Below are positions 1,339 to 12,706 of a DNA stretch of 12,706 nt, one piece after another. This DNA comes from an uncultured Gemmatimonadaceae bacterium. Its GTDB lineage: Bacteria > Gemmatimonadota > Gemmatimonadetes > Longimicrobiales > RSA9. The stretch lies in the NCBI GenBank assembly GCA_964430275.1, contig CAYSGF010000374.1:1-12706 (forward strand). Direction: 5' to 3'. Positions within the stretch are counted from its first letter, which is position 1; each line of letters begins with the position of its first letter. Below the pieces are notes generated by a model that was not told the origin of the DNA, made no database searches, and was given only the letters and a program-made list of their open reading frames with translations. A program made the translations under genes and the position numbers.

Positions 1339-1664
1339 GGGCTCTCTACGTTTGTGGCGCTCCGCCAGGCGCGGCGCGACCCACGCTCATCGTACGGGCC
1401 GGTGCCCGTCCGCTCAAGGCGACCCCTCGATTCCCGCAGGCGCCACGCGTCGGATCCGGCTGCCAGACGTGCGCATGTGGCTCGCGCTGCGCGGGGCGGG
1501 TCGTCCCCGCATCGCGGACGGGTATCGCCTGCGCATTGACGCGCCCGGCTCCTGTGGCAATCCTCAGAGGACCACACCGTTAAGAATCACTTCGATGAGA
1601 TCGCGGCGCAGCGCCGCCGCCCTGCTGGTCCTGAGGATGTGTTCCATCAGTCATGAGAGGTGAG

Positions 1665-3095
1665 ATGATGCGCAGCATACGCGCGTTCTGGCTTGTGATC
1701 GCGCTGGCCGCCTGCGCCAGCAACCCGCAGCCGGTTGCGCCGGGCTCCACCGGTGAGCCGGAGCGCATGCCGCCCGCCGATACGGAGGCCGTGGTGGCCG
1801 GCCGTGCACCGTCGGCGGTGTCCATCCCGATCGACTACTACAAGCTCGACAACGGCCTGCGGGTCGTGCTGTCGCGCGACACGAGCGCGCCTACGGCCGC
1901 AATCGCGGTCTACTACAACATCGGCTTCCGCATCGAGCCGCGCGATCGCACCGGCTTCGCGCACCTGTTCGAGCACATGATGTTCCAGGGCTCGGAGAAT
2001 CTCGGAAAGAACGAGTTCATTGCGCTGGTGCAGAAGCATGGCGGCAACTTGAATGGCTCGACGCGCTTCGACTTCACGAACTATTTCGAGCTGGTGCCCT
2101 CGAATGCGCTGGAAACGATGCTGTGGGCGGAAGCCGACCGGATGAAGGGGCTGGCAATCACGCAGGAGAACCTGACGAACCAGCAGGGCGTGGTCAGCAA
2201 CGAGGTGAAGGTGAACGTGCTGAACCAGCCGTACGGCGGGTTCCCGTGGATCGACATGCCCATGGCGGCGAACGAGAACTGGCACAACGCGCACAACTTC
2301 TATGGCGACCTGGAAGACCTCGAAGCGGCGACGCTCGAGGACGTGCAGCGCTTCTTCCGCCAGTACTACGCACCGAACAACGCAGCCCTCGTCGTGGTCG
2401 GTGACCTCGATCCAGCGCAGACGAAGGCGTGGATCGAGGAGTACTTCGGGCCGATCCCGGCGGTCGAGCTGGCCGCGCAGCCGGACATATCCGAGCCGCG
2501 GCAGACGGCAGAGAAGGAGCACGTCCGGGTCGATCCGCTCGCGAACCGCCCGGCCATTGCGGTGGGCTACAAGGCGCCCGAGCCGGGTACGGCCGAGTAC
2601 TACGCGCTCGGCCTGATCGAGCAGATCCTCTCCCAGGGCCGTGACAGCTGGCTGCACCAGGAGCTCGTGCAGGAGCAGGCCCTGACCGGTGGCGTGTCCT
2701 CGAGCATGAACCCGCTCGGCAACATGCACAACATCGACGGGCCGACGATCTACCAGATCTGGATGTTCCACGACCAGGACAAGCCGGCCGACGCGATCAT
2801 TGCGGCGATCGATGAGCAGGTGCAGCGGCTGCAGACGGAGCCGGTCGACCGCGCCACACTCGATCGCGCTCTCGTGAAGATCCGCTCCAGTCTCTACAGC
2901 ACGCTCGAGAGCGGACTCGGCCGCGCGGACCTGCTCGCCTCGTTCGCCCTGTTCGACGACGATCCCGCGAAGATCAACCGGCTGGAGGACGAGTTCCGCA
3001 AGGTCACGCCGGAGCTGATCCAGCAGGTCGCGCGCGAGTACCTGCGGCGCACGAACCGCACGGTCGTGAAGGTCGAGCCCGCGAGCGCATCATGA
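1665..3095 (+). CDS. M16-family (pitrilysin/insulinase-like) zinc metallopeptidase, catalytically competent subunit, predicted lipoprotein
   Basis: ORF 1653..3095. The SD-like AGAGGTGAG (1656-1664) sits immediately upstream of tandem ATGs at 1665/1668, so the start is more likely 1665 or 1668 than 1653. The N-terminus MMRSIRAFWLVIALAACASNPQ is a signal peptide with an LAAC lipobox. The inverted zincin motif HLFEH (HxxEH) lies in FAHLFEHMMFQGSENLG, with the downstream NGSTRFDFTNYFE motif (M16 N-x-x-T-x-x-D/E-x-T-x-Y). At ~480 aa it is typical of M16B. Confidence 0.85.
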   Translation: MMRSIRAFWLVIALAACASNPQPVAPGSTGEPERMPPADTEAVVAGRAPSAVSIPIDYYKLDNGLRVVLSRDTSAPTAAIAVYYNIGFRIEPRDRTGFAHLFEHMMFQGSENLGKNEFIALVQKHGGNLNGSTRFDFTNYFELVPSNALETMLWAEADRMKGLAITQENLTNQQGVVSNEVKVNVLNQPYGGFPWIDMPMAANENWHNAHNFYGDLEDLEAATLEDVQRFFRQYYAPNNAALVVVGDLDPAQTKAWIEEYFGPIPAVELAAQPDISEPRQTAEKEHVRVDPLANRPAIAVGYKAPEPGTAEYYALGLIEQILSQGRDSWLHQELVQEQALTGGVSSSMNPLGNMHNIDGPTIYQIWMFHDQDKPADAIIAAIDEQVQRLQTEPVDRATLDRALVKIRSSLYSTLESGLGRADLLASFALFDDDPAKINRLEDEFRKVTPELIQQVAREYLRRTNRTVVKVEPASAS

Positions 3096-3193
3096 CTAGG
3101 GCTGCGATGCACCGAACGATTACCGCAGGTTTGCACCGCTGTCGCATACGTCAGTCACCGCGCAGGACGAGCGCGAGCGAGAGGGAATCTCAG

Positions 3194-4612
3194 ATGAATA
3201 TGCCAGGGACACTGCGTCGCACGTGCGCCTCACCGCTAGCGCTGGCGCTAGCCCTCGCCCTGCCGGCCGGCACGGCCGCGCAGCAGAGCCCGCCCGAGCC
3301 GGGACCGGCCAAGGACATCACCCTGCCCGCGCCGTACACCTTCACGCTGGACAACGGACTGGACGTCAAGCTGCTGCAGTACGGCGACGTGCCGAAGGCC
3401 GGTGTGCAGCTCGTCGTGCGGGTCGGGAACGTGGACGAGGCCGGGGATGAGGTCTGGCTCGCGGATCTCGTCGGCGACCTGATGCGCGAGGGCACGACGA
3501 CTCGCACGGGCGAGCAGATCGCGACCGAGGCCGCCAGCATGGGCGGCTCGCTCAATGTAGGTGTGTCCTCCGATGAGACCACGATTGGTGGCGATGCGCT
3601 CGCCGAGTTCGCGCCACAAATGGTGGCACTCGTCGCGGACGTCGCCCGGAACCCGTCATTCCCGGCGTCCGAGCTCGACCGGCTCAAGGCGGACCGGGTC
3701 CGCTCGCTCGCCATCGCGAAGAGCAGGCCGCAGTCGCTCGCCAACGAACGCTTCGCGTCGCTGCTGTACGGCAACCACCCGTACGGCATCACCTACCCGA
3801 CCGAAGCGATGGTCATGAGCTACACTCTCGAGCAGATCCGGCAGTTTCATGCGGAGCACTTCGACGCGGCGCGCGCGCGTCTGTACGTGATCGGCCAGTT
3901 CGATCGCGCTGCGGTCGAACGTGCCGTGCGCTCCGCGTTCGGCGCCTGGACCGCCGGTACCGAGTCCGCACCGCGCCTTGCACAGCCGCAGACGAACACG
4001 ATGGGGCAGCCGGTCATCCACATCATCGACAGACCGGGCGCCGTACAATCTTCGATGTTCATCGGTCTGCCGGTCGTGGATCCGACGCATCCGGACTACG
4101 TGCCGCTGCAGGTCACGAATACGCTGCTGGGCGGCGCGTTCGCGTCGCGCATCACCCGCAATATTCGCGAGGACAAGGGCTACACGTATTCTCCCTTCAG
4201 CTTCGTGAACAGCCGCTATCGTTCGGCGTACTGGGCCGAGGTCGCTGATGTGACGACCGCCGTCACCGGCGCATCGATCGAGGAGATCTTCAAGGAGATC
4301 GATCGCCTGGCCGCGGAGCCGCCTCCGGCCGAGGAGCTGCGCAGCATTCAGAACTATCTCGCGGGTACGTTTACGCTCAGCTCGTCATCGCGCGGCGGAC
4401 TGCTCGGCCAGCTCCGTATGCTCGACCTGCACGGCCTGCCGCAGTCGTACTTCACGAACTACGTGCGGAACGTCTATGCCGTCACGCCCGCCGAGGTGCA
4501 GCGCATCATGCGTGAGTACCTGCCGAAGGACGAGATGGTCATCGTGATCGTCGGCGATCGCGAACAGATTGCGGAGCAGGTCGCTGCGCTCGGCGACGTA
4601 ATCACCGACTGA
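3194..4612 (+). CDS. M16-family peptidase, non-catalytic (HxxEH-less) partner subunit, secreted
   Basis: ORF 3092..4612. The likely true start is ATG 3194 (MNMPGTLRRTCASPLALALALALPAGTAAQQ, a signal peptide), preceded by GAGGGAA at 3182-3188. It has the M16 domain architecture and length (~470 aa), with the same N-terminal strand as subunit A (YYKLDNGLRVV in the first gene, YTFTLDNGLDVKLL here), but no HxxEH. It lies directly downstream of the active subunit, the typical M16B heterodimer arrangement. Confidence 0.8.
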   Translation: MNMPGTLRRTCASPLALALALALPAGTAAQQSPPEPGPAKDITLPAPYTFTLDNGLDVKLLQYGDVPKAGVQLVVRVGNVDEAGDEVWLADLVGDLMREGTTTRTGEQIATEAASMGGSLNVGVSSDETTIGGDALAEFAPQMVALVADVARNPSFPASELDRLKADRVRSLAIAKSRPQSLANERFASLLYGNHPYGITYPTEAMVMSYTLEQIRQFHAEHFDAARARLYVIGQFDRAAVERAVRSAFGAWTAGTESAPRLAQPQTNTMGQPVIHIIDRPGAVQSSMFIGLPVVDPTHPDYVPLQVTNTLLGGAFASRITRNIREDKGYTYSPFSFVNSRYRSAYWAEVADVTTAVTGASIEEIFKEIDRLAAEPPPAEELRSIQNYLAGTFTLSSSSRGGLLGQLRMLDLHGLPQSYFTNYVRNVYAVTPAEVQRIMREYLPKDEMVIVIVGDREQIAEQVAALGDVITD

Positions 4613-4763: not shown

Positions 4764-5330
4764 ATGCACGCTCTCTTCATCGTATGCCTGCTGGCGGGCG
4801 CGGTCGTGCTCGCGGCGCAGGTGCTGTTCGGCGCCTTCGGCATGGATACGCATCTGCCGGACGTCGACGCGTCCGGGGTGCCGGGCGGGAGTCCGCTCGT
4901 CGCCGGCGCAGAGCTGCTGAGCGTGCGCTCCGTGTCCGCGGCCGCAGCCGTGTTCGGCGCTACGGGAATGGCACTCGAGCCGCACATGCCGGCCCTGCTC
5001 GCGGGTGTGCTCGCACTGCCGGCCGGCTATGCGGCTGCCGCAGCGAACGCGTACCTGAATCGGCTCATTTTGCGGGCGCAGAGCGACGGTTCGCTCCGCC
5101 TTTCCGGTGCGGTCGGGGTTACGGGGCGGGTCTATCTCCCCGTGCCGAAGGCCAACGAAGGCAGCGGCCTGGTGCAGCTGACACTGCAGGGCCGAACCGT
5201 CGAGCTGCGAGCCGTGACGCGCGAAGCAAGTGAGCTCGCGACCGGCGCAGCCGTGTTCGTCGTCGCCGTCGATCCCGAGCGTGAGACGGTCGAAGTCGTG
5301 TCCACCTCCAGCATCGAGGCACTCTCATGA
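4764..5330 (+). CDS. nfeD: NfeD-family short membrane protein (YuaF/YqiJ-like; N-terminal TM helices plus C-terminal OB-fold), flotillin-associated
   Basis: ORF 4728..5330. The probable start is ATG 4764 (MHALFIVCLLAGAVVLAAQVLFGAF...), preceded by GGAG with a 5-nt spacer. There are two to three hydrophobic helices, then a C-terminal beta-rich segment GAVGVTGRVYLPV...GLVQLTLQGRTVELRAV...AAVFVVAVDPERETVEVV typical of the NfeD OB-fold. Its stop overlaps the start of the downstream flotillin gene (ATGA at 5327-5330). Confidence 0.8.
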   Translation: MHALFIVCLLAGAVVLAAQVLFGAFGMDTHLPDVDASGVPGGSPLVAGAELLSVRSVSAAAAVFGATGMALEPHMPALLAGVLALPAGYAAAAANAYLNRLILRAQSDGSLRLSGAVGVTGRVYLPVPKANEGSGLVQLTLQGRTVELRAVTREASELATGAAVFVVAVDPERETVEVVSTSSIEALS

Positions 5331-6964
5331 TCCCTGTTCACGCAATGCTCGGCGTCGTCCAGCTGCCGGCGTCACTGCCGCCCGCGGCGATCCTCGGCGG
5401 GGTGATTGCGCTCCTGCTGTTGAGCGCAGTCATGCTCTTCGTCAGCCGCTACCGTCGCTGTCCGGCCAACCGTGTCCTGATCATTTCCGGTCGTGTAGGG
5501 ACTGGTCAGTCGGCGCGCGTGATCAGCGGGGGTGGCGCATTCATCTGGCCGGTCATCCAGGAGTACGCGTTCCTGGACCTGGCACCGCTGCAGATCGACA
5601 TCAACCTGACGGACGCGTTGTCTCTCGAGAACATCCGCGTCAAGGTACCGAGCCAGGTGACCGTCGCAGTGGGCGACACCCCCGAGTTCCAGCAGAACGC
5701 GGCAGCGCGCATCCTGAACCTGAAGCCGAATGATGTGAAGGAGCTGGCTGCGAACATCATCTTCGGCCAGATGCGCCAGGTGATCGCGTCCATGCGGATC
5801 GAGGACATCAACCGGGACCGCGATCAGTTCCGCGCGAATATCGAGCACGCGCTCGAGCCCGAGCTCAAGAAGATCGGCCTGAAGCTGATCAACGTGAACA
5901 TCAAGGATCTGAACGACGAGTCCGGTTACATCGAGGCGATCGGTCGGGAAGCCGGCGCGCGCGCTGTCAACAAGGCGAAGGGTGACGTAGCCGAGCAGGA
6001 GAAGCTGGGCGCCATCGCCGTTGCGCAGGCGGAGCAGGCGAAGGACATCGAGGTGTCGAACGCGAACCGCGAGCGCGAGATCGGTGTGAAGACCGCCGAG
6101 CGCGACACCGCGATCCGCATCGCGGACCTCGATCGCGAGACGGCCGTCGCACAGCAGCGCGCCGAGTACTCGCGCGACACCGAGATCGCACAGGCGGACC
6201 AGTCACGCCGGGTCGCGGTATCGGCGGCGAACGCGGAGGCGATCTCCGGCGAGACTGAAGCACAGGCCAGCATCGCCGGCGCGAAGGCACGGCTGCTCGT
6301 GAAGGAGGCCGAGGCATACGAGGTCGGTGAGACGCGTAAGCGCGTTGCGTCCGCCGCCGTGTCCGAGGCGGAGAACCGCGCGCAGGCCAAGGCCGCACTC
6401 GCCGAGGCGGAGCGCATCGAGGCCGAGCGCCGCGCCGAGCTGGAAGCGCCGGCCAAGGCGGAGAAGGCGCGTCGGATCGTGGAAGCCGAGGCCGTCGCCG
6501 AAAGCCGTCGGCTGGAAGCGGAAGGAGAGGCGTCCGCGATCTTCGCCCGGCTGGAAGCCGAGGCGCGCGGCGAATTCGAGATGCTGTCGAAGAAGGCCGA
6601 CGGTCTCCGCAGGATCGTCGAGGCGTGCGGCAGCGCCGACGAGGCGTATCGCCTGCTCATGCTCGAGAAGATCGAGCACCTCGCCGACAAGGCCGCCGAC
6701 GCCGTCAGCAACATCAAGTTCGACAAGGTGGTGCTGTGGGGTGGCGGGGGAGCAAACAGCAATGGCGCGGCCAGCGGCGTCAGCAGCTTCGTCGCGGACC
6801 TGATGGGCACTCTGCCGCCCGCGCTGCACACCATGCTCAACATCGGCGGCGTTCGCATTGCCGAGAACGTCGTGAAGCTGGAGGAGGAGCCTGCGAACGG
6901 CGACTCCGCGCCTGCAGCCAGGAAGCCGGCGCCGCCCACGCGCACCGTCGAGCTGCCCAAGTAA
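5327..6964 (+). CDS. floT: Flotillin-like SPFH/Band-7 domain protein (FloT/YqiK family) with a long Ala/Glu-rich coiled-coil (EA-repeat) region
   Basis: 545 aa. There is an N-terminal TM segment (AAILGGVIALLLLSAVMLFV), then the SPFH core (RCPANRVLIISGRVG...GGGAFIWPVIQEYAFLDLAPLQIDI...), then ~250 aa of AEAEA/EAER-rich coiled coil and a Gly-rich tail. It is translationally coupled to the upstream NfeD, the classical nfeD-flotillin operon organisation. Confidence 0.9.
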   Translation: MIPVHAMLGVVQLPASLPPAAILGGVIALLLLSAVMLFVSRYRRCPANRVLIISGRVGTGQSARVISGGGAFIWPVIQEYAFLDLAPLQIDINLTDALSLENIRVKVPSQVTVAVGDTPEFQQNAAARILNLKPNDVKELAANIIFGQMRQVIASMRIEDINRDRDQFRANIEHALEPELKKIGLKLINVNIKDLNDESGYIEAIGREAGARAVNKAKGDVAEQEKLGAIAVAQAEQAKDIEVSNANREREIGVKTAERDTAIRIADLDRETAVAQQRAEYSRDTEIAQADQSRRVAVSAANAEAISGETEAQASIAGAKARLLVKEAEAYEVGETRKRVASAAVSEAENRAQAKAALAEAERIEAERRAELEAPAKAEKARRIVEAEAVAESRRLEAEGEASAIFARLEAEARGEFEMLSKKADGLRRIVEACGSADEAYRLLMLEKIEHLADKAADAVSNIKFDKVVLWGGGGANSNGAASGVSSFVADLMGTLPPALHTMLNIGGVRIAENVVKLEEEPANGDSAPAARKPAPPTRTVELPK

Positions 6965-7065: not shown

Positions 7066-9372
7066 TCAGGGCGCCATCGCGGCCCACAACATCGGCCAGG
7101 TCGCCACGGTCTGCCCCCGGTAGTTCGGCTGGAATCCGAACAGCACCACGCTGCCATCGCCGACCTCCGCTTCGACGAGCGCGGGTTTCCCGGCGAGGTG
7201 CTCGGGTCCGAGAATCCAGCCGGATACCTTCGGATTCCCGGCTGCGTAGCGCGCGACCACCGTCACGTTCTCACCCTCGATGTCGAACGCGCGCGAATCG
7301 CCCCAGTACCAAACGTGCGCACTCGAGCCGACCCCGCCCGACAGCGGGTTCGATGCATCCACGTCCACGCGCAGGATGGACCCGGGTACGTAGAAGTCCT
7401 GTGGGCGCAGGTCCTCCACCGCGCTCGTGATCGGCAGGTCGAAGAGCTCGGCCGCGAACTCCGTCGCCTGCTCGATCGCGACGAGCCTGCCGCCGCCGCG
7501 GACGAACGCCTCGAGTGCCGCGACGCCGGCATCGCCGATGCCGCCCGTGTACTGTTCGGGTAGCGTGCCCGGCTCGTTCCCCTCGCGGATGGAGCGCGCA
7601 CTCTGCGACTGCAGCACGATCACGTCGTAATCGCGGCCCAGGTTGCCCTGCCGGATGCGCGCATCCTTGAGCGTGTCGTAGCGCAGCTCGTGCATGTCGA
7701 AGACCCAGCGTGTCCAGCCGGCCTCCATCGGCTCCTGCGCGGACTTGTACAGGGCGATGCGCGGCGCATCCCCGCCCGTCAGCACGTCGGGAAGCTCGAA
7801 GCGCCATTCGACCTGGCGGATCGGCTCGGACAGGGTTGGCTGCGCACCCGCCCATTCGTCGACCGCAATCGCCTCGACATCCATCAGCAGTGGCAGCGTG
7901 TGCGCCGTTACGTCGTACGGACGACGCGGCGGGCCGCCGGGATACTCGCGCAGGTCCGGGTACTCCTGGACCTCGAGCATGGTCTGAGCGAACGACGCAT
8001 ACGGCTGCTGCATGGGAATCACGTACGTGCCTGCGGCATAGGAGCGTCCGCCCGTCGTGAACGGCGCGCCTGCGCGGTGCACCTCGACATCCGCCATGGT
8101 CAGGATTCGCAGGATGTGAGCGAGCCCGACCTCGTTCGCCTGGTCTGCAGGGATTACCCACGCCGCCGGCCAGTCGTCCCATCCCTCGACTGCGCGCCGG
8201 TTGATGCGGTAGAAGTTCTCGACCCAGAACTTCCGATTCCTGGCCGCATTCTCGAGCAGAGCAAGCGCGCCCGCTTCCATGTAGTCGACGATGTCGCCGA
8301 CGCCCCATTCACCGCCTTCCCACGGCAGCGGAAAGTTCCAAGTAGCAGTGGCGGCATCGTAGGCGCGGCCGCCTCGCACGCGCTCGGGCGGGATGTCCAC
8401 GGGCGTCGCCAGCCGCGCAGAGGCCGTCTCGCTCAGGATCCGCACACCGCCGTGGTAGTGCTGGTAGGCGCGCGCCGGCGTGAACGCGTCGTAAATCGCA
8501 TTGATGACTACACCTTCCTTGCCATCCGCCGTCAGGCGCGCACCCATGTATGCGCCCAGCTGGTTGAGTGCACTCACGACCGCCGGATCGACGTTGTGCT
8601 CGACCGGGTCGATGTAGGGCGGGAAAAAAATGCGCGCACCCGTCGCACCCATCTGGTGGATGTCGTGCACGATGTGCGGTCGCCAGACATTGTGCGCGTG
8701 CTCGATCGCGAGCTGCGTCTCCTTCTGCGTAAACGCATACCAGTCGCGGTTGTTGTCGTGGCCGATGTAGAACTGGTACAGCCACGGCGGCGATGCACCC
8801 TCGTACGCCGTGCCGACATGCTCCATGTAGAATTCGCTGACCCAGTCCGTACCGTCCGGATTCAGAGAGGGGATGTCGAGCAGGATCACATTGTCGAGGA
8901 TCTCGCCCGTAGCCTCGTCCGTTCCGGATGCCAGCTTGTAGAGCATGCGCGCGGCGGTCAGCCCACCGCCGACCTCCGTGGAGTGGATCTGGTGCGTGAT
9001 GAGCGCGACCGTCCGGGCGTCCTCGAGCAGCGTCGCGAGCTCCGCGTCGCTCGCGATCGTCCGCGGGTCCGCGAGCTTCTGCTGCATGGCGAGCAGCGCG
9101 TCGAGCCGGGCATGATTCTCCGGGCTCGTCACCGTCAGCATCACGAAGGGCCGGCCCATCGTCGTCGTTCCGATGGTGTCGAGGGCTACGCGCGGACTCG
9201 CCTGCGCGAGCTTCTCGTAGTACGCGAGGAGCTGGTCCCAGTCTGCGAGGTGGCGGTCGGCGCCGATCTCGAAGCCGAAGTGGGACTCCGGCGTGGGGAC
9301 CTGCTGCGCCGCGGCCGGTAGCGCAGGGGCAGCCAGGCAGAGCAGTGCCGGCAGGAGGAGACGACGGTTCAT
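7066..9372 (-). CDS. Secreted M14-family zinc carboxypeptidase-like protein (768 aa) with a large C-terminal extension
   Basis: N-terminal signal peptide MNRRLLLPALLCLAAPALPAAAQQ, with an HxxE zinc-ligand motif in ITHQIHSTEVGGG. The M14-like core runs over roughly residues 60-330 (NPDG, HDNNRDW-type motifs), followed by ~400 aa of additional domain. There is a GGAGG SD 5 nt upstream of the ATG (rc of 9373-9385). Confidence 0.8.
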   Translation of the reverse strand: MNRRLLLPALLCLAAPALPAAAQQVPTPESHFGFEIGADRHLADWDQLLAYYEKLAQASPRVALDTIGTTTMGRPFVMLTVTSPENHARLDALLAMQQKLADPRTIASDAELATLLEDARTVALITHQIHSTEVGGGLTAARMLYKLASGTDEATGEILDNVILLDIPSLNPDGTDWVSEFYMEHVGTAYEGASPPWLYQFYIGHDNNRDWYAFTQKETQLAIEHAHNVWRPHIVHDIHQMGATGARIFFPPYIDPVEHNVDPAVVSALNQLGAYMGARLTADGKEGVVINAIYDAFTPARAYQHYHGGVRILSETASARLATPVDIPPERVRGGRAYDAATATWNFPLPWEGGEWGVGDIVDYMEAGALALLENAARNRKFWVENFYRINRRAVEGWDDWPAAWVIPADQANEVGLAHILRILTMADVEVHRAGAPFTTGGRSYAAGTYVIPMQQPYASFAQTMLEVQEYPDLREYPGGPPRRPYDVTAHTLPLLMDVEAIAVDEWAGAQPTLSEPIRQVEWRFELPDVLTGGDAPRIALYKSAQEPMEAGWTRWVFDMHELRYDTLKDARIRQGNLGRDYDVIVLQSQSARSIREGNEPGTLPEQYTGGIGDAGVAALEAFVRGGGRLVAIEQATEFAAELFDLPITSAVEDLRPQDFYVPGSILRVDVDASNPLSGGVGSSAHVWYWGDSRAFDIEGENVTVVARYAAGNPKVSGWILGPEHLAGKPALVEAEVGDGSVVLFGFQPNYRGQTVATWPMLWAAMAP

Positions 9373-9517: not shown

Positions 9518-9985
9518 ATGTCCATGCCGACACGGAGAGAATGGCTGGCCGCCGCGGCGGCCGGTATCGCGGTGACGCTGGCTGCACCACGCGAGGCGCT
9601 CGCACGCATATCCGCGCGGCCGATGCTGCGCGTCCGCAAGAACCCCGGCTGCGGCTGCTGCGACAAGTGGGTCGACCACATGAAAGAGCTCGGCTTCGAC
9701 GCGACGGTCGTCGAGGACCCGAACATCTACGAGTACAAGCAGAAGCTCGGCGTTCCGGGCGAGCTGGTGAGCTGCCATACGGCCGAGGTCGACGGCTACG
9801 TCCTCGAAGGACACGTGCCCGGCGACCTCGTGCAGCGCATGCTCCGCGAAATGCCGAAGATCACTGGCCTCGCCGTGGGCGGCATGCCGATGGGATCGCC
9901 GGGGATGGAGGGACTGCGCAAGGATCCGTACGACGTCGTCGCCTTCACGAAGAACGGCGACACGATGGTCTACGCCCGTCGCTGA
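9518..9985 (+). CDS. DUF411/CopG-family periplasmic metal(copper)-binding protein with a Tat signal peptide
   Basis: MSMPTRREWLAAAAAGIAVTLAAPREALA has a twin-arginine motif (TRREWL), a hydrophobic core and AxA. The CGCC (CxCC) motif is followed by DKWVDHM and the Met-rich GGMPMGSPGMEG segment characteristic of DUF411. An AGGAGA SD lies 5 nt upstream. Confidence 0.85.
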   Translation: MSMPTRREWLAAAAAGIAVTLAAPREALARISARPMLRVRKNPGCGCCDKWVDHMKELGFDATVVEDPNIYEYKQKLGVPGELVSCHTAEVDGYVLEGHVPGDLVQRMLREMPKITGLAVGGMPMGSPGMEGLRKDPYDVVAFTKNGDTMVYARR

Positions 9986-9989
9986 CCGC

Positions 9990-10610
9990 GTGCCGTACGC
10001 GCAGAACGGAGCCGCCCCGAAGACATACGACCGCGACTATTTCGACCGCTGGTACCGATCACCGCGTGCCGTAGTGCGCCGTACCGTGGTCGAGCGCAAG
10101 GCGCGCCTCGCCCTGGCGGCGACCGAGCATCTACTGGGGCGCGAAGTCCGCACCGTGCTCGATGTAGGGTGCGGCGAGGCGCCGTGGCGCGGAATGCTGC
10201 GGCGCATCAGGAGCGACGTCGACTACACCGGCATCGATCCGAGCGACTACGTCGTGCGTCGGTACGGCCGCCAGCGCGACGTCCGCCAGGGAACACTCCA
10301 GTCGCTCGACCGCCTCGACCTGTCCCGCAGCTACGATCTCGTCGTCTGTTCGGACGTGCTCCAGTATCTCCCGAACGCGGAAGTGAAGCAGGGGCTGCGC
10401 CTGCTCGCGAAGCGCGTAGGCGGTGTCGCGTTCATCGAGGCGTTCACGGCGGGTGACGACATGGTGGGTGATCGCGAGCTGTGGCACGCCCGGTCCGCCG
10501 GATGGTACCGCCGCGCATTTGCGGATGCCGGCCTCATACCCGTCGGCCTCCATCTCTACATCGGCCCGCGCCTGCGTTCCGCCACGAACGAGCTCGAGCG
10601 CCTGGGCTGA
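9990..10610 (+). CDS. Class I SAM-dependent methyltransferase (~206 aa)
   Basis: GTG start 4 nt after the DUF411 stop. Motif I VLDVGCGEAPW (GxGxG-type SAM-binding loop), with an acidic residue at the end of beta-2 (YTGIDPSD) and motif-II-like DLVVCSDVLQYL. The exact start is uncertain. Confidence 0.7.
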   Translation: MPYAQNGAAPKTYDRDYFDRWYRSPRAVVRRTVVERKARLALAATEHLLGREVRTVLDVGCGEAPWRGMLRRIRSDVDYTGIDPSDYVVRRYGRQRDVRQGTLQSLDRLDLSRSYDLVVCSDVLQYLPNAEVKQGLRLLAKRVGGVAFIEAFTAGDDMVGDRELWHARSAGWYRRAFADAGLIPVGLHLYIGPRLRSATNELERLG

Positions 10611-10620
10611 CGCGGCTGTG

Positions 10621-11874
10621 TCAGGGCCGCCGCCGGAGCAACCTCAGCGCGATTCCCACTGCGAGTACCAGCACACCGGTCGCAAGCGTGCGCGCATCGA
10701 GTGCGAGCGCGAGCAGTGCACACGCAGCGACCCCGAATGCCGGTATAAAGGTCGGCAGCCAGCGTCGATCCGCGGGCATGCGCAGCGCTGCAACGTTCGC
10801 AATGCCGTAATACACCAGTATCGTGAATGACGCAGCCGCAACGACGGCGTCGAGTGCACCGGTCGCAGCCACGGCGCCGGCTGCGATGCCGACGGCGATG
10901 ACTGCGGCGCGCGGCACACCCCGGTCGTCGACGTGGCCGAGCAGTTGTGGCAGGTCCTTGCGACGCGCCATCGCAAAGCCCATCCGGCTGAGTCCGAGGA
11001 TCTGGGAAAGCACGACCCCGAGCATTGCGGTCAAACCGCCGATCGCCACGACATGCGGCAGCCAGGCCGACGGTGTCGCATTCGCTGCGACGTAGAGTGG
11101 CGCAGCCGTGCGAGCCAGCGCGGGTGCACCCGCGGTGCCGACCGCGACAGTGGCGACGGCGCCGTAGAGCAGGAGCGCTCCCACGAGCGTAATGCCGACC
11201 GCGCGCGGGATCGTGCGGCGCGGCTCGCGCACCTCCTCGCCGAGCGTCGCAATGCGGGCATAGCCGGTATACGCGAAGAAGAGCAGTGCAGCGGCGCGCG
11301 CAGTGCCGCTCCAACCGTCGGGTGCAAAGGGTGCGAAGGCGGCACGTGTCATCGAGCCCGCGCCGACCACGACGAAACAGAGCAGCGCGCCAACCGATCC
11401 CGCAACGATCAGCAGGTTCACTGTGCTCGTGCGGCGTACGCCGAACAGGTTCAGCACCGTGAAGAGCACGATTGCGCCGACACCGACCGCGCGCTCGGGC
11501 AGTCCCGGCAGCAGCGCGCCGAGGTAGCCGCCGAGACCGATCGCGATCGTGCCCGCCGCCGCCGTCTTGCTCGCGAGGAACATCCAGCCGGCGACGTAGC
11601 CCGGCCACGGTCCGAGCACGCGATAGCCGTACTCGTAGGTGCCGCCCGCATACGGGTACTCCGCTGCCAGCTGAGCGGAGGAGAGCGCGTTCGCCGTAGC
11701 CGCGAGGCCTGCGATCAGTAGTGCAACGACGAGCGCCGGGCCGGCCACTCCTGCTGCGACGCCGGTCACCACGAAAATGCCACCGCCAATGATGGCGCCA
11801 AATCCGATTCCGACGGCGTCGAACAGGCCGAGCTCGCGGCGGAGCGCCTGGGGCGGAGGAGTCGCTGGGCTCAT
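10621..11874 (-). CDS. APC-superfamily amino-acid permease (~417 aa, 12-TM type)
   Basis: The ORF track gives 10621..12084, but the first 70 codons are Arg-rich low-complexity and would overlap the divergent gene's start. The likely start is ATG 11874 (MSPATPPPQALRRELGLFDAVGIGFGAIIGGGIFVVTG...), the typical APC N-terminus preceding TM1 with its GxG motif. The protein is hydrophobic throughout with multiple TM helices. Confidence 0.75.
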   Translation of the reverse strand: MSPATPPPQALRRELGLFDAVGIGFGAIIGGGIFVVTGVAAGVAGPALVVALLIAGLAATANALSSAQLAAEYPYAGGTYEYGYRVLGPWPGYVAGWMFLASKTAAAGTIAIGLGGYLGALLPGLPERAVGVGAIVLFTVLNLFGVRRTSTVNLLIVAGSVGALLCFVVVGAGSMTRAAFAPFAPDGWSGTARAAALLFFAYTGYARIATLGEEVREPRRTIPRAVGITLVGALLLYGAVATVAVGTAGAPALARTAAPLYVAANATPSAWLPHVVAIGGLTAMLGVVLSQILGLSRMGFAMARRKDLPQLLGHVDDRGVPRAAVIAVGIAAGAVAATGALDAVVAAASFTILVYYGIANVAALRMPADRRWLPTFIPAFGVAACALLALALDARTLATGVLVLAVGIALRLLRRRP

Positions 11875-12017
11875 GTGCGGATCTGAACCCGTCGCGGCCG
11901 ACTCCGCAACCTGCTGCGCGACGGCGGCGGGGCCATATGTCCGGACGCGACGCGACACGGCTGGCGCCCTCGGCGCCAGCGCTGCATCTTGGGCGCAGCC
12001 CCAGCCACGGAGCTGCC

Positions 12018-12593
12018 ATGAAACACTGGATGCTGCCCCTGAGCGCTGTCGGTGCGCTCGCCCTCGCCGCACCCGCTGCTGCACAGGAGCCGGAGAACCC
12101 GCCGCCCCTCGAGATCGGCGCGCTCGCGCCGGACTTCGAGCTGCCCGGCGCGACGCGCTACGGCGTGCTCGCCGAGCCCATCCGCCTCAGCGACTTCAAC
12201 GGCAAAACTGTTGTGCTCGCGTTCTTCTTCAGGGCAAGGACGAAGGGCTGAACGATCCAGATGCATGCGTACCGTGATCAGTACGCTCGGATCTTCAACA
12301 ACGGCCGCGGAACCATTCTCATCGCGATCAGTGCGGACTCGATCGGAGAGCTCGCCGCCTGGGCGCGCGACGACGAGTTCCCCTTCCTGATGGCGAGTGA
12401 TGCAGGCACTGAAGTCGCACGCCAGTACGGCGCCCTCGCGTCGCGCCCCGGCATAACGAACCGCAACCTGTTCGTAGTGGGGCCCGACGGCCGGATCGCC
12501 TATCGCGCTGTACCATTTCGCGAGATCGACCCCACGGCGTACGACGAGCTCGCCGAGGTCGTGGACAGCCTGATGCCGGTGGAGGAGAATTAG
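12018..12593 (+). CDS. Periplasmic PrxQ/Bcp-type peroxiredoxin with an in-frame TGA (12249-12251) at the peroxidatic-Cys position; candidate selenocysteine-containing peroxiredoxin (1-Sec Prx). Alternative reading: a nonsense-mutated pseudogene
   Basis: The track ORFs 11937..12251 and 12261..12593 are in the same frame (both starts are 0 mod 3) and are separated only by a TGA. The joined translation from ATG 12018 (GGAG SD, signal peptide MKHWMLPLSAVGALALAAPAAAQEP) aligns along its length with E. coli Bcp: ALAPDFELP...LSDFNGKTVVLAFFFRARTKG-[TGA]-TIQMHAYRD...GTILIAISADS...FPFLMASD...YGAL...NRNLFVVGPDGRI, versus Bcp IAPKFSLP...[31 protein letters not shown]...VLGISTD...FTLLSD...FGV...RISFLIDADGKI. 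The TGA falls exactly where the catalytic Cys lies in T-x-G-C-T. There is no other Cys in the protein. A stem-loop starts 3 nt downstream. Confidence 0.6.
12254..12293 (+). other. Candidate bacterial SECIS-like stem-loop immediately 3' of the in-frame TGA
   Basis: Outer helix GATCC (12254-12258) / GGATC (12289-12293). Inner perfect 6-bp helix GCGTAC (12267-12272) / GTACGC (12281-12286), closing an 8-nt apical loop CGUGAUCA (12273-12280). A possible G12274-C12279 pair would leave a UGAU tetraloop. The loop G/U residues sit 25-29 nt after the UGA, within the 16-37 nt spacing used for bacterial SECIS prediction. Confidence 0.4.
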
Positions 12594-12601
12594 TTCGGAA
12601 A

Positions 12602-12706
12602 GCCGGAATCCGGAGTGACCGGAATCCGGAGTGCGGAGTGACCGGAATCCGGAATTGCGGAGTGCGGAGCGACCGGAATGACCGGAATGCGGAGTGACCG
12701 GAATGC
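12602..12706. repeat. Composite short tandem repeat array of 9-mer GACCGGAAT and 7-mer SCGGAGT units, running off the window end
   Basis: GACCGGAAT occurs at 12617, 12640, 12671, 12680 and 12696. CCGGAGT/GCGGAGT/GCGGAGC occur at 12610, 12626, 12633, 12657, 12664 and 12689. (G)CCGGAAT occurs at 12602 and 12649. That is ~14 units with no spacers, starting 9 nt after the peroxiredoxin TAG stop. The + strand has stop codons in all frames, so it is non-coding there. Confidence 0.8.

Follow-up and report, generated by a model that had tools for sequence, protein, structure and literature searches.

Does the in-frame TGA at positions 12249-12251 of contig CAYSGF010000374.1, a stretch of 12,706 nucleotides from an uncultured Gemmatimonadaceae bacterium (hereafter the window), terminate a short open reading frame (ORF), or does it encode an amino acid in the middle of a longer gene? 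The codon lies on the forward strand within 12018..12593, where the two readings give either a pair of fragments or one complete peroxiredoxin (Prx) gene, prx, with the TGA at codon 78, the position of the peroxidatic cysteine. Judged from its own sequence and from its homologues, prx is almost certainly an intact and single gene, and by every comparative criterion tested, namely the occurrence of a cysteine/selenocysteine (Cys/Sec) pair, of orthologues with the TGA and of a bacterial Sec insertion sequence (bSECIS), it is a selenoprotein gene. It is very probable that the internal TGA encodes Sec, and to the same high degree we regard 12018-12593 as a functional gene for a secreted 1-Sec peroxiredoxin of the BCP/PrxQ-AhpE type.

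A single gene across an in-frame TGA

In a preliminary description of this DNA, the ORFs at 11937..12251 and 12261..12593 were taken to be one gene in a common frame, which an annotation pipeline would be apt to report as two. The two ORFs do share a frame and are separated only by the TGA and three further codons, and the joined product matches the Pfam family AhpC-TSA (PF00578) with an E-value of 1.3e-27 and 96.7 bits (cut-off 26) over residues 33-162, that is, across the TGA. In the public protein collection the halves appear as separate products of 77 and 110 amino acids from the same 12,706-nt contig, so that both the common gene and its mis-call had been foreseen correctly. The complete gene, as delimited by translation, by the Pfam match and by the N-terminus and length of its homologues, has 191 codons including the putative Sec78, and its stop codon is TAG (12591-12593, forward strand). 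The likely start is ATG 12018, as had been chosen earlier, because direct reading of the sequence places a Shine-Dalgarno-like GGAG (12009..12012, same strand) 5 nt upstream of it and because the N-termini of the homologues match; ATG 11937, at the head of the first ORF, was rejected as a start.

Around the TGA the translation reads A-F-F-F-R-A-R-T-K-G-[TGA]-T-I-Q-M, in which alignment locates the active-site motif F71-R-A-R-T75-K-G-U78 (12228..12251, forward strand), a form of PxxxTxxC in which Phe replaces the Pro. The TGA is aligned with the invariant Cys of the Cys-containing homologues (FFPRARTxGCTIQM), exactly at the peroxidatic residue where the preliminary description had put it.

Conservation of the TGA among relatives

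Homology searches returned two groups of proteins. The first consists of full-length Cys proteins of 51-76% identity with the motif FFPRARTxGCT, while the closest relatives (83-88% identity) are represented only by C-terminal fragments starting with MHAYRDQY, and are therefore split at the same point as the window gene. When the DNA of these closest relatives was inspected in JGI, ENA, NCBI and Logan assemblies, TGA was found at the same codon in every case. In a scan of species representatives (one genome per species, 570 relatives), TGA occupies codon 78 in 80 of the 80 best loci, and these best 80 all belong to Gemmatimonadota (Gemmatimonadales, Longimicrobiales, Gemmatimonadaceae). A scan of metagenomes gave TGA in 74 of the 80 best loci, although it had been seeded with a Cys-only alignment. 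On the other side of the Cys/Sec pairing stand 107 full-length proteins with Cys and Pro and 7 Cys-form DNAs. The preliminary description had named Cys, or TGA with a similar hairpin, as the states to look for in homologues, and both were found; its remark that Sec-containing peroxiredoxins are rare is wrong for this lineage, where most members of this Gemmatimonadota Prx clade have Sec, as read from the TGA codon.

These counts bear on a simple alternative, according to which the window contig holds a pseudogene or a sequencing or assembly error that turned TGC or TGT into TGA. One base change would be enough for this, and a relative with TTA at the codon on a thinly covered contig (P0006, see below) shows that errors or null alleles do occur. 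However, over 150 unique sequences, drawn from independent samples, sequenced at independent centres and put together with independent assemblers, carry the TGA. It was also recovered when the source run, SRR10083322, was assembled a second time and independently by Logan, which speaks against the sequencing error considered earlier. Moreover, the frame downstream is without decay, and the TGA goes together with Phe or Tyr at residue 71 and with frozen codons in the hairpin, a coupling that random error leaves unexplained. We consider this alternative to be effectively refuted.

Some entries depart from the common pattern at this codon. The JGI gene calls for P0005 (locus L016) and P0092 give Trp at the TGA, as under a translation table of the code 4/25 type, and the entries that result from such calls seem full-length, are named 'thioredoxin-dependent peroxiredoxin' and show W as the catalytic residue; the DNA of P0005, listed with Trp, has TGA, and the L016 call also runs past the real TGA stop of prx. 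In P0006 (L183) the codon, at locus positions 332-334, is TTA (Leu) on a contig of 1.6x coverage with the hairpin intact, which is likely an error or a null allele. The protein entries P0038 (Val) and P0039 (Leu) differ at the same site. Locus L059 (CAVROI010000002.1) carries two TGA-containing prx paralogues, with TGA at 10226 and 14940, 4.7 kb apart; one is of the Phe type and the other of the Tyr type, and the hairpin core is intact in both.

Translation through the TGA

Among 156 unique TGA genes, the ratio of non-synonymous to synonymous variation (pN/pS) was 0.28 over 42 codons upstream of the TGA and 0.42 over 100 codons downstream, with pS of about 0.5. The ORF downstream of the TGA has 109-120 codons in at least 173 of the 180 loci, and none of the relatives seen had a decayed frame past the TGA. 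The earlier statement that conservation continues undiminished past the TGA, as it would not in a decaying pseudogene, agrees with these values, and relatives with the same TGA and a decayed frame, which had been named as grounds for giving up the Sec reading, did not appear. Between the TGA and the ATG at 12261 stand three codons, which vary solely as ACN (Thr), ATY/GTN (Ile/Val) and CAR (Gln); such variation is synonymous or conservative only, and these codons are therefore translated in frame.

The same stretch decides how much weight can be given to a split gene, in which translation would stop at the TGA to leave a 77-residue fragment and restart at ATG 12261, with assembly of the two pieces being optional. 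The ATG, four codons past the TGA, is invariant, and pipelines do call two ORFs. Nevertheless, the corresponding Met is equally invariant in the Cys forms (QM), from which it follows that it is an internal, structural residue, and the intervening codons behave as translated ones. No Shine-Dalgarno sequence was found 5-10 nt before ATG 12261, and the arrangement would lose the catalytic residue altogether and leave a signal peptide on the first fragment only. A split gene is thus highly improbable.

A reassignment of TGA throughout the genome was also considered and is excluded by stop-codon usage. TGA is the stop codon of five of the six window genes with Pfam support, prx itself terminates with TGA in 55 of 180 loci, and the neighbouring tlpA-like and ccdA genes do so in several relatives. 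For a view independent of the Prx family, in-frame TGAs flanked to either side by 35 or more open codons were screened blindly in about 1.6 Mb of fetched Gemmatimonadota DNA, where a candidate was required to align with TGA or Cys in another locus and to show purifying selection on both flanks. Of 7,386 candidates, the Prx site alone was broadly supported: 159 loci have TGA there and 10 have Cys, and pN/pS is 0.27 and 0.28. Two other clusters, of 5 loci each, proved to be antisense shadows of real genes, and the remaining clusters were either shadows, off-frame or antisense, or true TGA stops where genes end.

A candidate SECIS hairpin downstream of the TGA

Downstream of the TGA lies a hairpin, GCGUAC-CGUGAUCA-GUACGC (12267..12286, forward strand), with a stem of 6 bp and a loop of 8 nt, which is supported by RNAalifold, by covariation and by the freezing of its codons. 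With positions numbered from the U of the UGA, so that the loop includes G26 and U27, RNAalifold applied to 86 unique sequences gives a 7-bp stem that pairs 18-24 with 33-39 around the 8-nt loop. Six of the pairs are invariant in these sequences. The closing pair 18:39 varies, being U-A in 38, C-G in 37, G-C in 6, A-U and U-G in 1 each, and U.U in 3. In a shuffle test on this pair, neither the covariation score nor the paired fraction of the real alignment was reached in any of 500 replicates, and the pairing was lost once the partner column was shifted along the alignment. Position 39 is a fully synonymous third-codon site, and position 18, likewise at a third codon position, is synonymous within His/Asn/Gln, which covers all but 7 of 142 sequences.

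The constraint is equally apparent at the level of codons when 142 unique TGA forms are compared with 7 Cys-form DNAs that encode the same or a nearly identical peptide (AYRDQY followed by Ala or Glu). The Ala codon (21) is GCG in all 142 TGA forms, as against GCG 6 and GCC 1 in the Cys forms, and the first Tyr codon (24) is TAC in all 142, as against TAC 5 and TAT 2. The Arg codon (27) is CGT in 139 and CGG in 3 TGA forms, whereas the Cys forms have CGC 5, CGG 2 and no CGT; the Asp codon (30) is GAT in 136 and GAC in 6, as against GAT 4 and GAC 3. Gln (33) is CAG throughout (142 and 7), and the second Tyr codon (36) is TAC in 142, as against TAC 6 and TAT 1. The hairpin codons are thus frozen in the TGA forms, while those of the Cys forms drift at all sites but Gln, and the contrast for CGT (139/142 vs 0/7) gives a Fisher p of 4e-10. 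CGT and GAT are moreover disfavoured in the window, where CGT accounts for 12% of the codons for Arg and GAT for 26% of those for Asp, at a G+C content of third codon positions (GC3) of 0.85.

The published bSECIS model, as quoted in a review of 2026, describes a loop of 3-9 nt, an upper stem of 4-16 bp, a distance of 16-37 nt from the UGA and a minimum free energy (MFE) of at most -7.5 kcal/mol, with a G within the first two loop positions in the pattern G[G|U] (PMC13188914). All of these quoted features are found here: the loop has 8 nt and the stem 6-7 bp, the hairpin starts 15-16 nt and the apical loop 21 nt past the UGA, and the MFE ranges from -7.8 to -10.3 kcal/mol across the TGA forms, with -8.2 in the window (12266-12287). 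The second loop position is G, followed by U (139) or by G (3), both of which the pattern allows. Taken together, the comparative evidence is strong that the downstream hairpin acts as a SECIS element. In the mechanism that we favour, the UGA at codon 78 would not be a stop; the hairpin would recruit SelB with Sec-tRNA(Sec), and Sec would be inserted at peroxidatic position 78.

Weighing the evidence for selenocysteine

Several observations weigh against this interpretation. At the covarying closing pair, the window itself and its two nearest relatives (L014 and L015, with the same sequence) have a U.U mismatch (12266:12287). These three carry an added outer helix, an extended lower stem at 12254..12293 (forward strand) that appears in the MFE folds and pairs GAUCC (12254-12258) with GGAUC (12289-12293); in the predicted fold of positions 4-48, at -14.1 kcal/mol, this helix compensates for the mismatch. 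The folding energy of the window hairpin taken alone is unremarkable (z = -0.92), and for this reason the significance of the hairpin is drawn only from the comparative data, single-sequence energy not being counted as evidence. A search of the whole window with Rfam in E-value mode found no bacterial SECIS model matching at the site. In its codons the peptide A-Y...Q-Y-A is in part a palindrome, and it forces part of the hairpin, as a result of which some Cys forms fold a weaker one (mean -6.2 kcal/mol; L179 -9.4); the palindromic peptide may at the same time have eased the acquisition of a SECIS element. As for the decoding machinery, ARAGORN found no tRNA-Sec in the window or in 83 loci, and tblastn with E. 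coli SelA, SelB and SelD found no matches in 1.16 Mb of Gemmatimonadota flanks, a null that is uninformative because about one chance match is expected if the genes are unlinked. The blind TGA screen revealed no second selenoprotein family in the roughly 1.6 Mb of relatives' flanks. Lastly, the redox partner genes described below are not visible in the window, where they would lie out of view because the contig ends 113 nt past the prx stop.

The Rfam search also gave a match to the eukaryotic model SECIS_1 at 4336-4396 on the reverse strand, in the second M16 peptidase gene, which was rejected as a chance match (21.5 bits vs 35, E = 3).

The window holds no tRNA gene and no sel gene. For the class as a whole, a table of KEGG Orthology (KO) terms by class for dereplicated metagenome-assembled genomes (MAGs), in sheet 01 of Table S2 of PMC9727886, gives class Gemmatimonadetes fractions of 1.0 for K01042 (selA) and 0.923 for K01008 (selD). 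The fractions imply 13 MAGs, so that selA would be present in 13 of 13 and selD in 12 of 13. Within the scope of that sheet, a Sec pathway based on selA and selD is evidently common in class Gemmatimonadetes, and its presence in the window's own genome is to that extent plausible.

In the remaining alternative the UGA would be read through independently of SelB by a near-cognate tRNA (Trp, Cys or Arg), with the hairpin as a generic stimulator and a catalytic residue without selenium. It draws some support from the searches of the window and of the relatives' flanks, which brought up no Sec machinery, and from the gene callers that gave W at the codon (P0005, P0092). The W calls are, however, artefacts of the code-4 type in genes whose DNA has TGA. 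Trp or Arg at the peroxidatic site would abolish catalysis, yet the active-site Thr and Arg are under strong purifying selection; the loop is fixed as G-U or G-G at the bSECIS positions of the SelB type, at the canonical distance; and selA and selD are near-universal in the independent MAG set of that sheet. Read-through of this kind appears quite improbable, and insertion of Sec remains the interpretation that we follow below.

Peroxiredoxin type and active site

Profile comparisons with structures in the Protein Data Bank (PDB) ranked archaeal BCP-type peroxiredoxins first (2ywn at 4e-23, 3hjp, 2cx3), together with AhpE of M. tuberculosis (1xvw), at E-values from 4e-23 to 2e-13; with the Pfam match, these fix the peroxiredoxin fold. 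Thr75 and Arg149 (in NRNLF; codon at 12462..12464, forward strand) align with the catalytic residues of the solved BCP and AhpE structures, and Arg149 is invariant in the homologue alignment. The NCBIfam equivalog for PrxU (NF040737) scored 55.6 bits against a cut-off of 270, and that for E. coli-type Bcp (NF006960) 53.7 bits against 140; scores so far below the cut-offs mean that the window protein is not an orthologue of either. The label PrxQ/Bcp given to it in the preliminary description therefore stands in so far as the subfamily is, by structure profiles, BCP/PrxQ-AhpE-like, and falls where it would imply orthology to E. coli Bcp.

The mature region contains no Cys in 153 of 153 unique TGA forms and exactly one in the Cys forms, in line with the earlier claim that the protein has no other cysteine. 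With this single Sec or Cys, the protein would be a 1-Sec/1-Cys enzyme in need of an external reductant. We propose that the Sec78 selenolate, activated by Thr75 and Arg149, would reduce peroxides and be converted into a selenenic acid, which a cysteine-free Prx could not resolve internally.

The replacement of Pro by Phe71 in the window is not an isolated change. Residue 71 is Phe in 100 and Tyr in 42 of the 142 unique TGA forms, and never Pro, while all 7 Cys-form DNAs and 107 of the 108 full-length Cys proteins have Pro there. The TGA is coupled to Phe or Tyr at residue 71. The sole exception, P0054, has Tyr with Cys, falls inside a Sec clade of a neighbour-joining (NJ) tree and has a hairpin peptide decayed to DTYRDRYP; it looks like a recent reversion from Sec to Cys in which the SECIS constraint was then lost. 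In this tree, which is midpoint-rooted, built from short sequences and without support values, Cys/Pro clades are interleaved with Sec clades, which tentatively points to more than one Sec/Cys switch. The exchange of Pro for Phe or Tyr suggests that the pocket has been retuned for selenium. A wider generalisation, that Gemmatimonadota near-universally carry an exported 1-Sec Prx in which selenium is obligatorily coupled to the change from Pro to Phe/Tyr, with repeated Sec/Cys switches flipping residue 71, is a tentative one that we would put somewhat short of even chances.

An unusual active site occurs in L028 (CP070812.1, a complete 4.8 Mb chromosome), which reads AFYFRARGRN-[TGA]-TVQ with the TGA at 10208 and has an intact hairpin. 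The Thr of TxxU is replaced by Gly and the Gly before Sec by Asn, and it would be unusual for a Sec-Prx to lack the conserved Thr.

Predicted export and a possible redox relay

The N-terminus of the window protein (12018..12083, forward strand) carries the features of a Sec-type signal peptide, Sec here denoting the secretion pathway, with a predicted cleavage site shown by the bar (MKHWMLPLSAVGALALAAPAAA | QEP). Lys at position 2, a hydrophobic core and AAA|Q can be read by eye, and all homologues have a hydrophobic N-terminus ending in A-x-A-Q, on which basis we infer Sec-dependent export, in accordance with the signal peptide noted earlier. The signal peptide would thus direct the Prx to the cell envelope.

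Downstream sequence of 3.5 kb or more is present in 89 loci, and in 66 of them a thioredoxin-fold gene and a DsbD_TM/CcdA gene flank prx on the opposite strand, within 6 kb. The former encodes a TlpA-like protein with WCPLC (Pfam Redoxin/Thioredoxin_8) and the latter a short CcdA-like DsbD_TM protein of about 240 amino acids. The Cys-form prx genes have the same TlpA-like and CcdA neighbours. In the relatives, these two genes sit where the window has its repeats and contig end. Synteny in the relatives, together with the predicted signal peptide, makes it moderately probable that an envelope relay runs from CcdA through the TlpA-like protein to the Sec-Prx. In such a relay the TlpA-like periplasmic thioredoxin (WCPLC) would probably reduce the Prx, and a membrane electron transporter of the CcdA/DsbD type would keep that thioredoxin reduced.

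Comparison with known systems

Peroxiredoxins with Sec are known since PrxU was reported in 2001, with 43 genes in a survey of the Sargasso Sea and 78 organisms in a survey of 2016 (PMC13188914, PMC1088965, PMC5029168), and the protein described here is not a new kind of system, since it falls within this known family. Like PrxU of Eubacterium acidaminophilum, it would combine the AhpC/TSA fold with a peroxidatic Sec in T-x-x-U, a SECIS hairpin in the coding region just past the UGA and widespread Cys homologues. It differs in that the motif of the Sec-Prx family is described as 'highly conserved PxxxTxxU' (PMC13188914), whereas the present clade has [F/Y]xxxTxxU and no orthology to PrxU; the clade also has a predicted signal peptide, no Cys, and TlpA-like and CcdA neighbours, and is confined to Gemmatimonadota. 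By these sequence features it is a distinct Sec-Prx variant: Gemmatimonadota-wide, predicted to be exported, cysteine-free and CcdA/TlpA-linked, with [F/Y]xxxTxxU. With the BCP/PrxQ and AhpE enzymes (E. coli Bcp; 2ywn, 3hjp, 2cx3; 1xvw) it shares the aligned Thr and Arg, and AhpE is likewise a 1-Cys enzyme; those enzymes, however, are cytoplasmic, use Cys and keep the Pro.

For the envelope pathway, the nearest parallel is peroxide reduction in Caulobacter crescentus, where electrons pass from ScsB to TlpA to PprX (PMC3322552). There an exported Prx is reduced by a periplasmic thioredoxin of the TlpA type, which receives its electrons by way of a membrane protein of the DsbD family; in Gemmatimonadota a comparable relay would be suggested by synteny only. 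The membrane component in Gemmatimonadota is a short CcdA-like DsbD_TM protein and not ScsB, and the window peroxidase would use Sec and has no resolving Cys.

The hairpin can be compared with the SECIS of E. coli fdhF, in which GU occupies positions 23-24. Both hairpins lie in the coding sequence past the UGA, and early in their small loops comes a G with U or G after it, as in the bSECIS model in general. There is no sequence similarity to the fdhF element, and the present hairpin has an 8-nt loop, GU at 26-27 and no evident bulged U.

In the selenoproteome literature searched, we found no paper that describes this prx clade and no mention of the phylum, although BSepDB (2026) may list the clade. 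Recognition of prx would add a selenoprotein, and by implication Sec decoding, to a major soil phylum, in which hundreds of genomes and metagenome contigs mis-call the gene as two hypothetical ORFs or with Trp. As a general rule, it has been published that selenoproteins are seldom kept by bacteria with an aerobic way of life (PMC13188914). Gemmatimonadota are a largely aerobic soil phylum, and a cysteine-free selenoperoxidase in their envelope, apparently fed by CcdA and TlpA, would run counter to that rarity and would tie the availability of selenium in soil to their defence against oxidative stress. If the proposals above are true, the clade would represent a distinct, selenium-adapted Prx active-site architecture and an undescribed extracytoplasmic selenoenzyme pathway from CcdA through a TlpA-like protein to Sec-Prx. 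For enzymology, the fact that Sec goes with Phe/Tyr and Cys with Pro would amount to a natural experiment on the retuning of an active site for selenium. In practical terms, the 20-nt near-invariant core of the candidate SECIS is a handy marker for locating such prx genes.

Other features of the window

Upstream of prx and divergent from it lies an amino-acid permease gene (10621-11874, reverse strand); the 143-nt intergenic region between the two holds the GGAG. The other genes of the window are at 1653-4612, 5327-6964, 7066-9372 (reverse strand), 9518-9985 and 9990-10610, and the products encoded outside prx comprise a tandem pair of M16 peptidases, an SPFH/Band 7 protein, an M14 carboxypeptidase, a DUF411 protein and a methyltransferase, besides the permease. 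None of these is a sel gene and none is obviously tied to prx. The 3' end of the window consists of degenerate short tandem repeats (12602-12706; units CCGGAAT and GCGGAGT[G]; TRF periods 7, 16, 23 and 31), which begin 9 nt past the prx stop, reach the contig end and are probably the cause of the assembly break. The gene order 5' of prx varies among the relatives, with a penicillin amidase gene found there in L010, for example.

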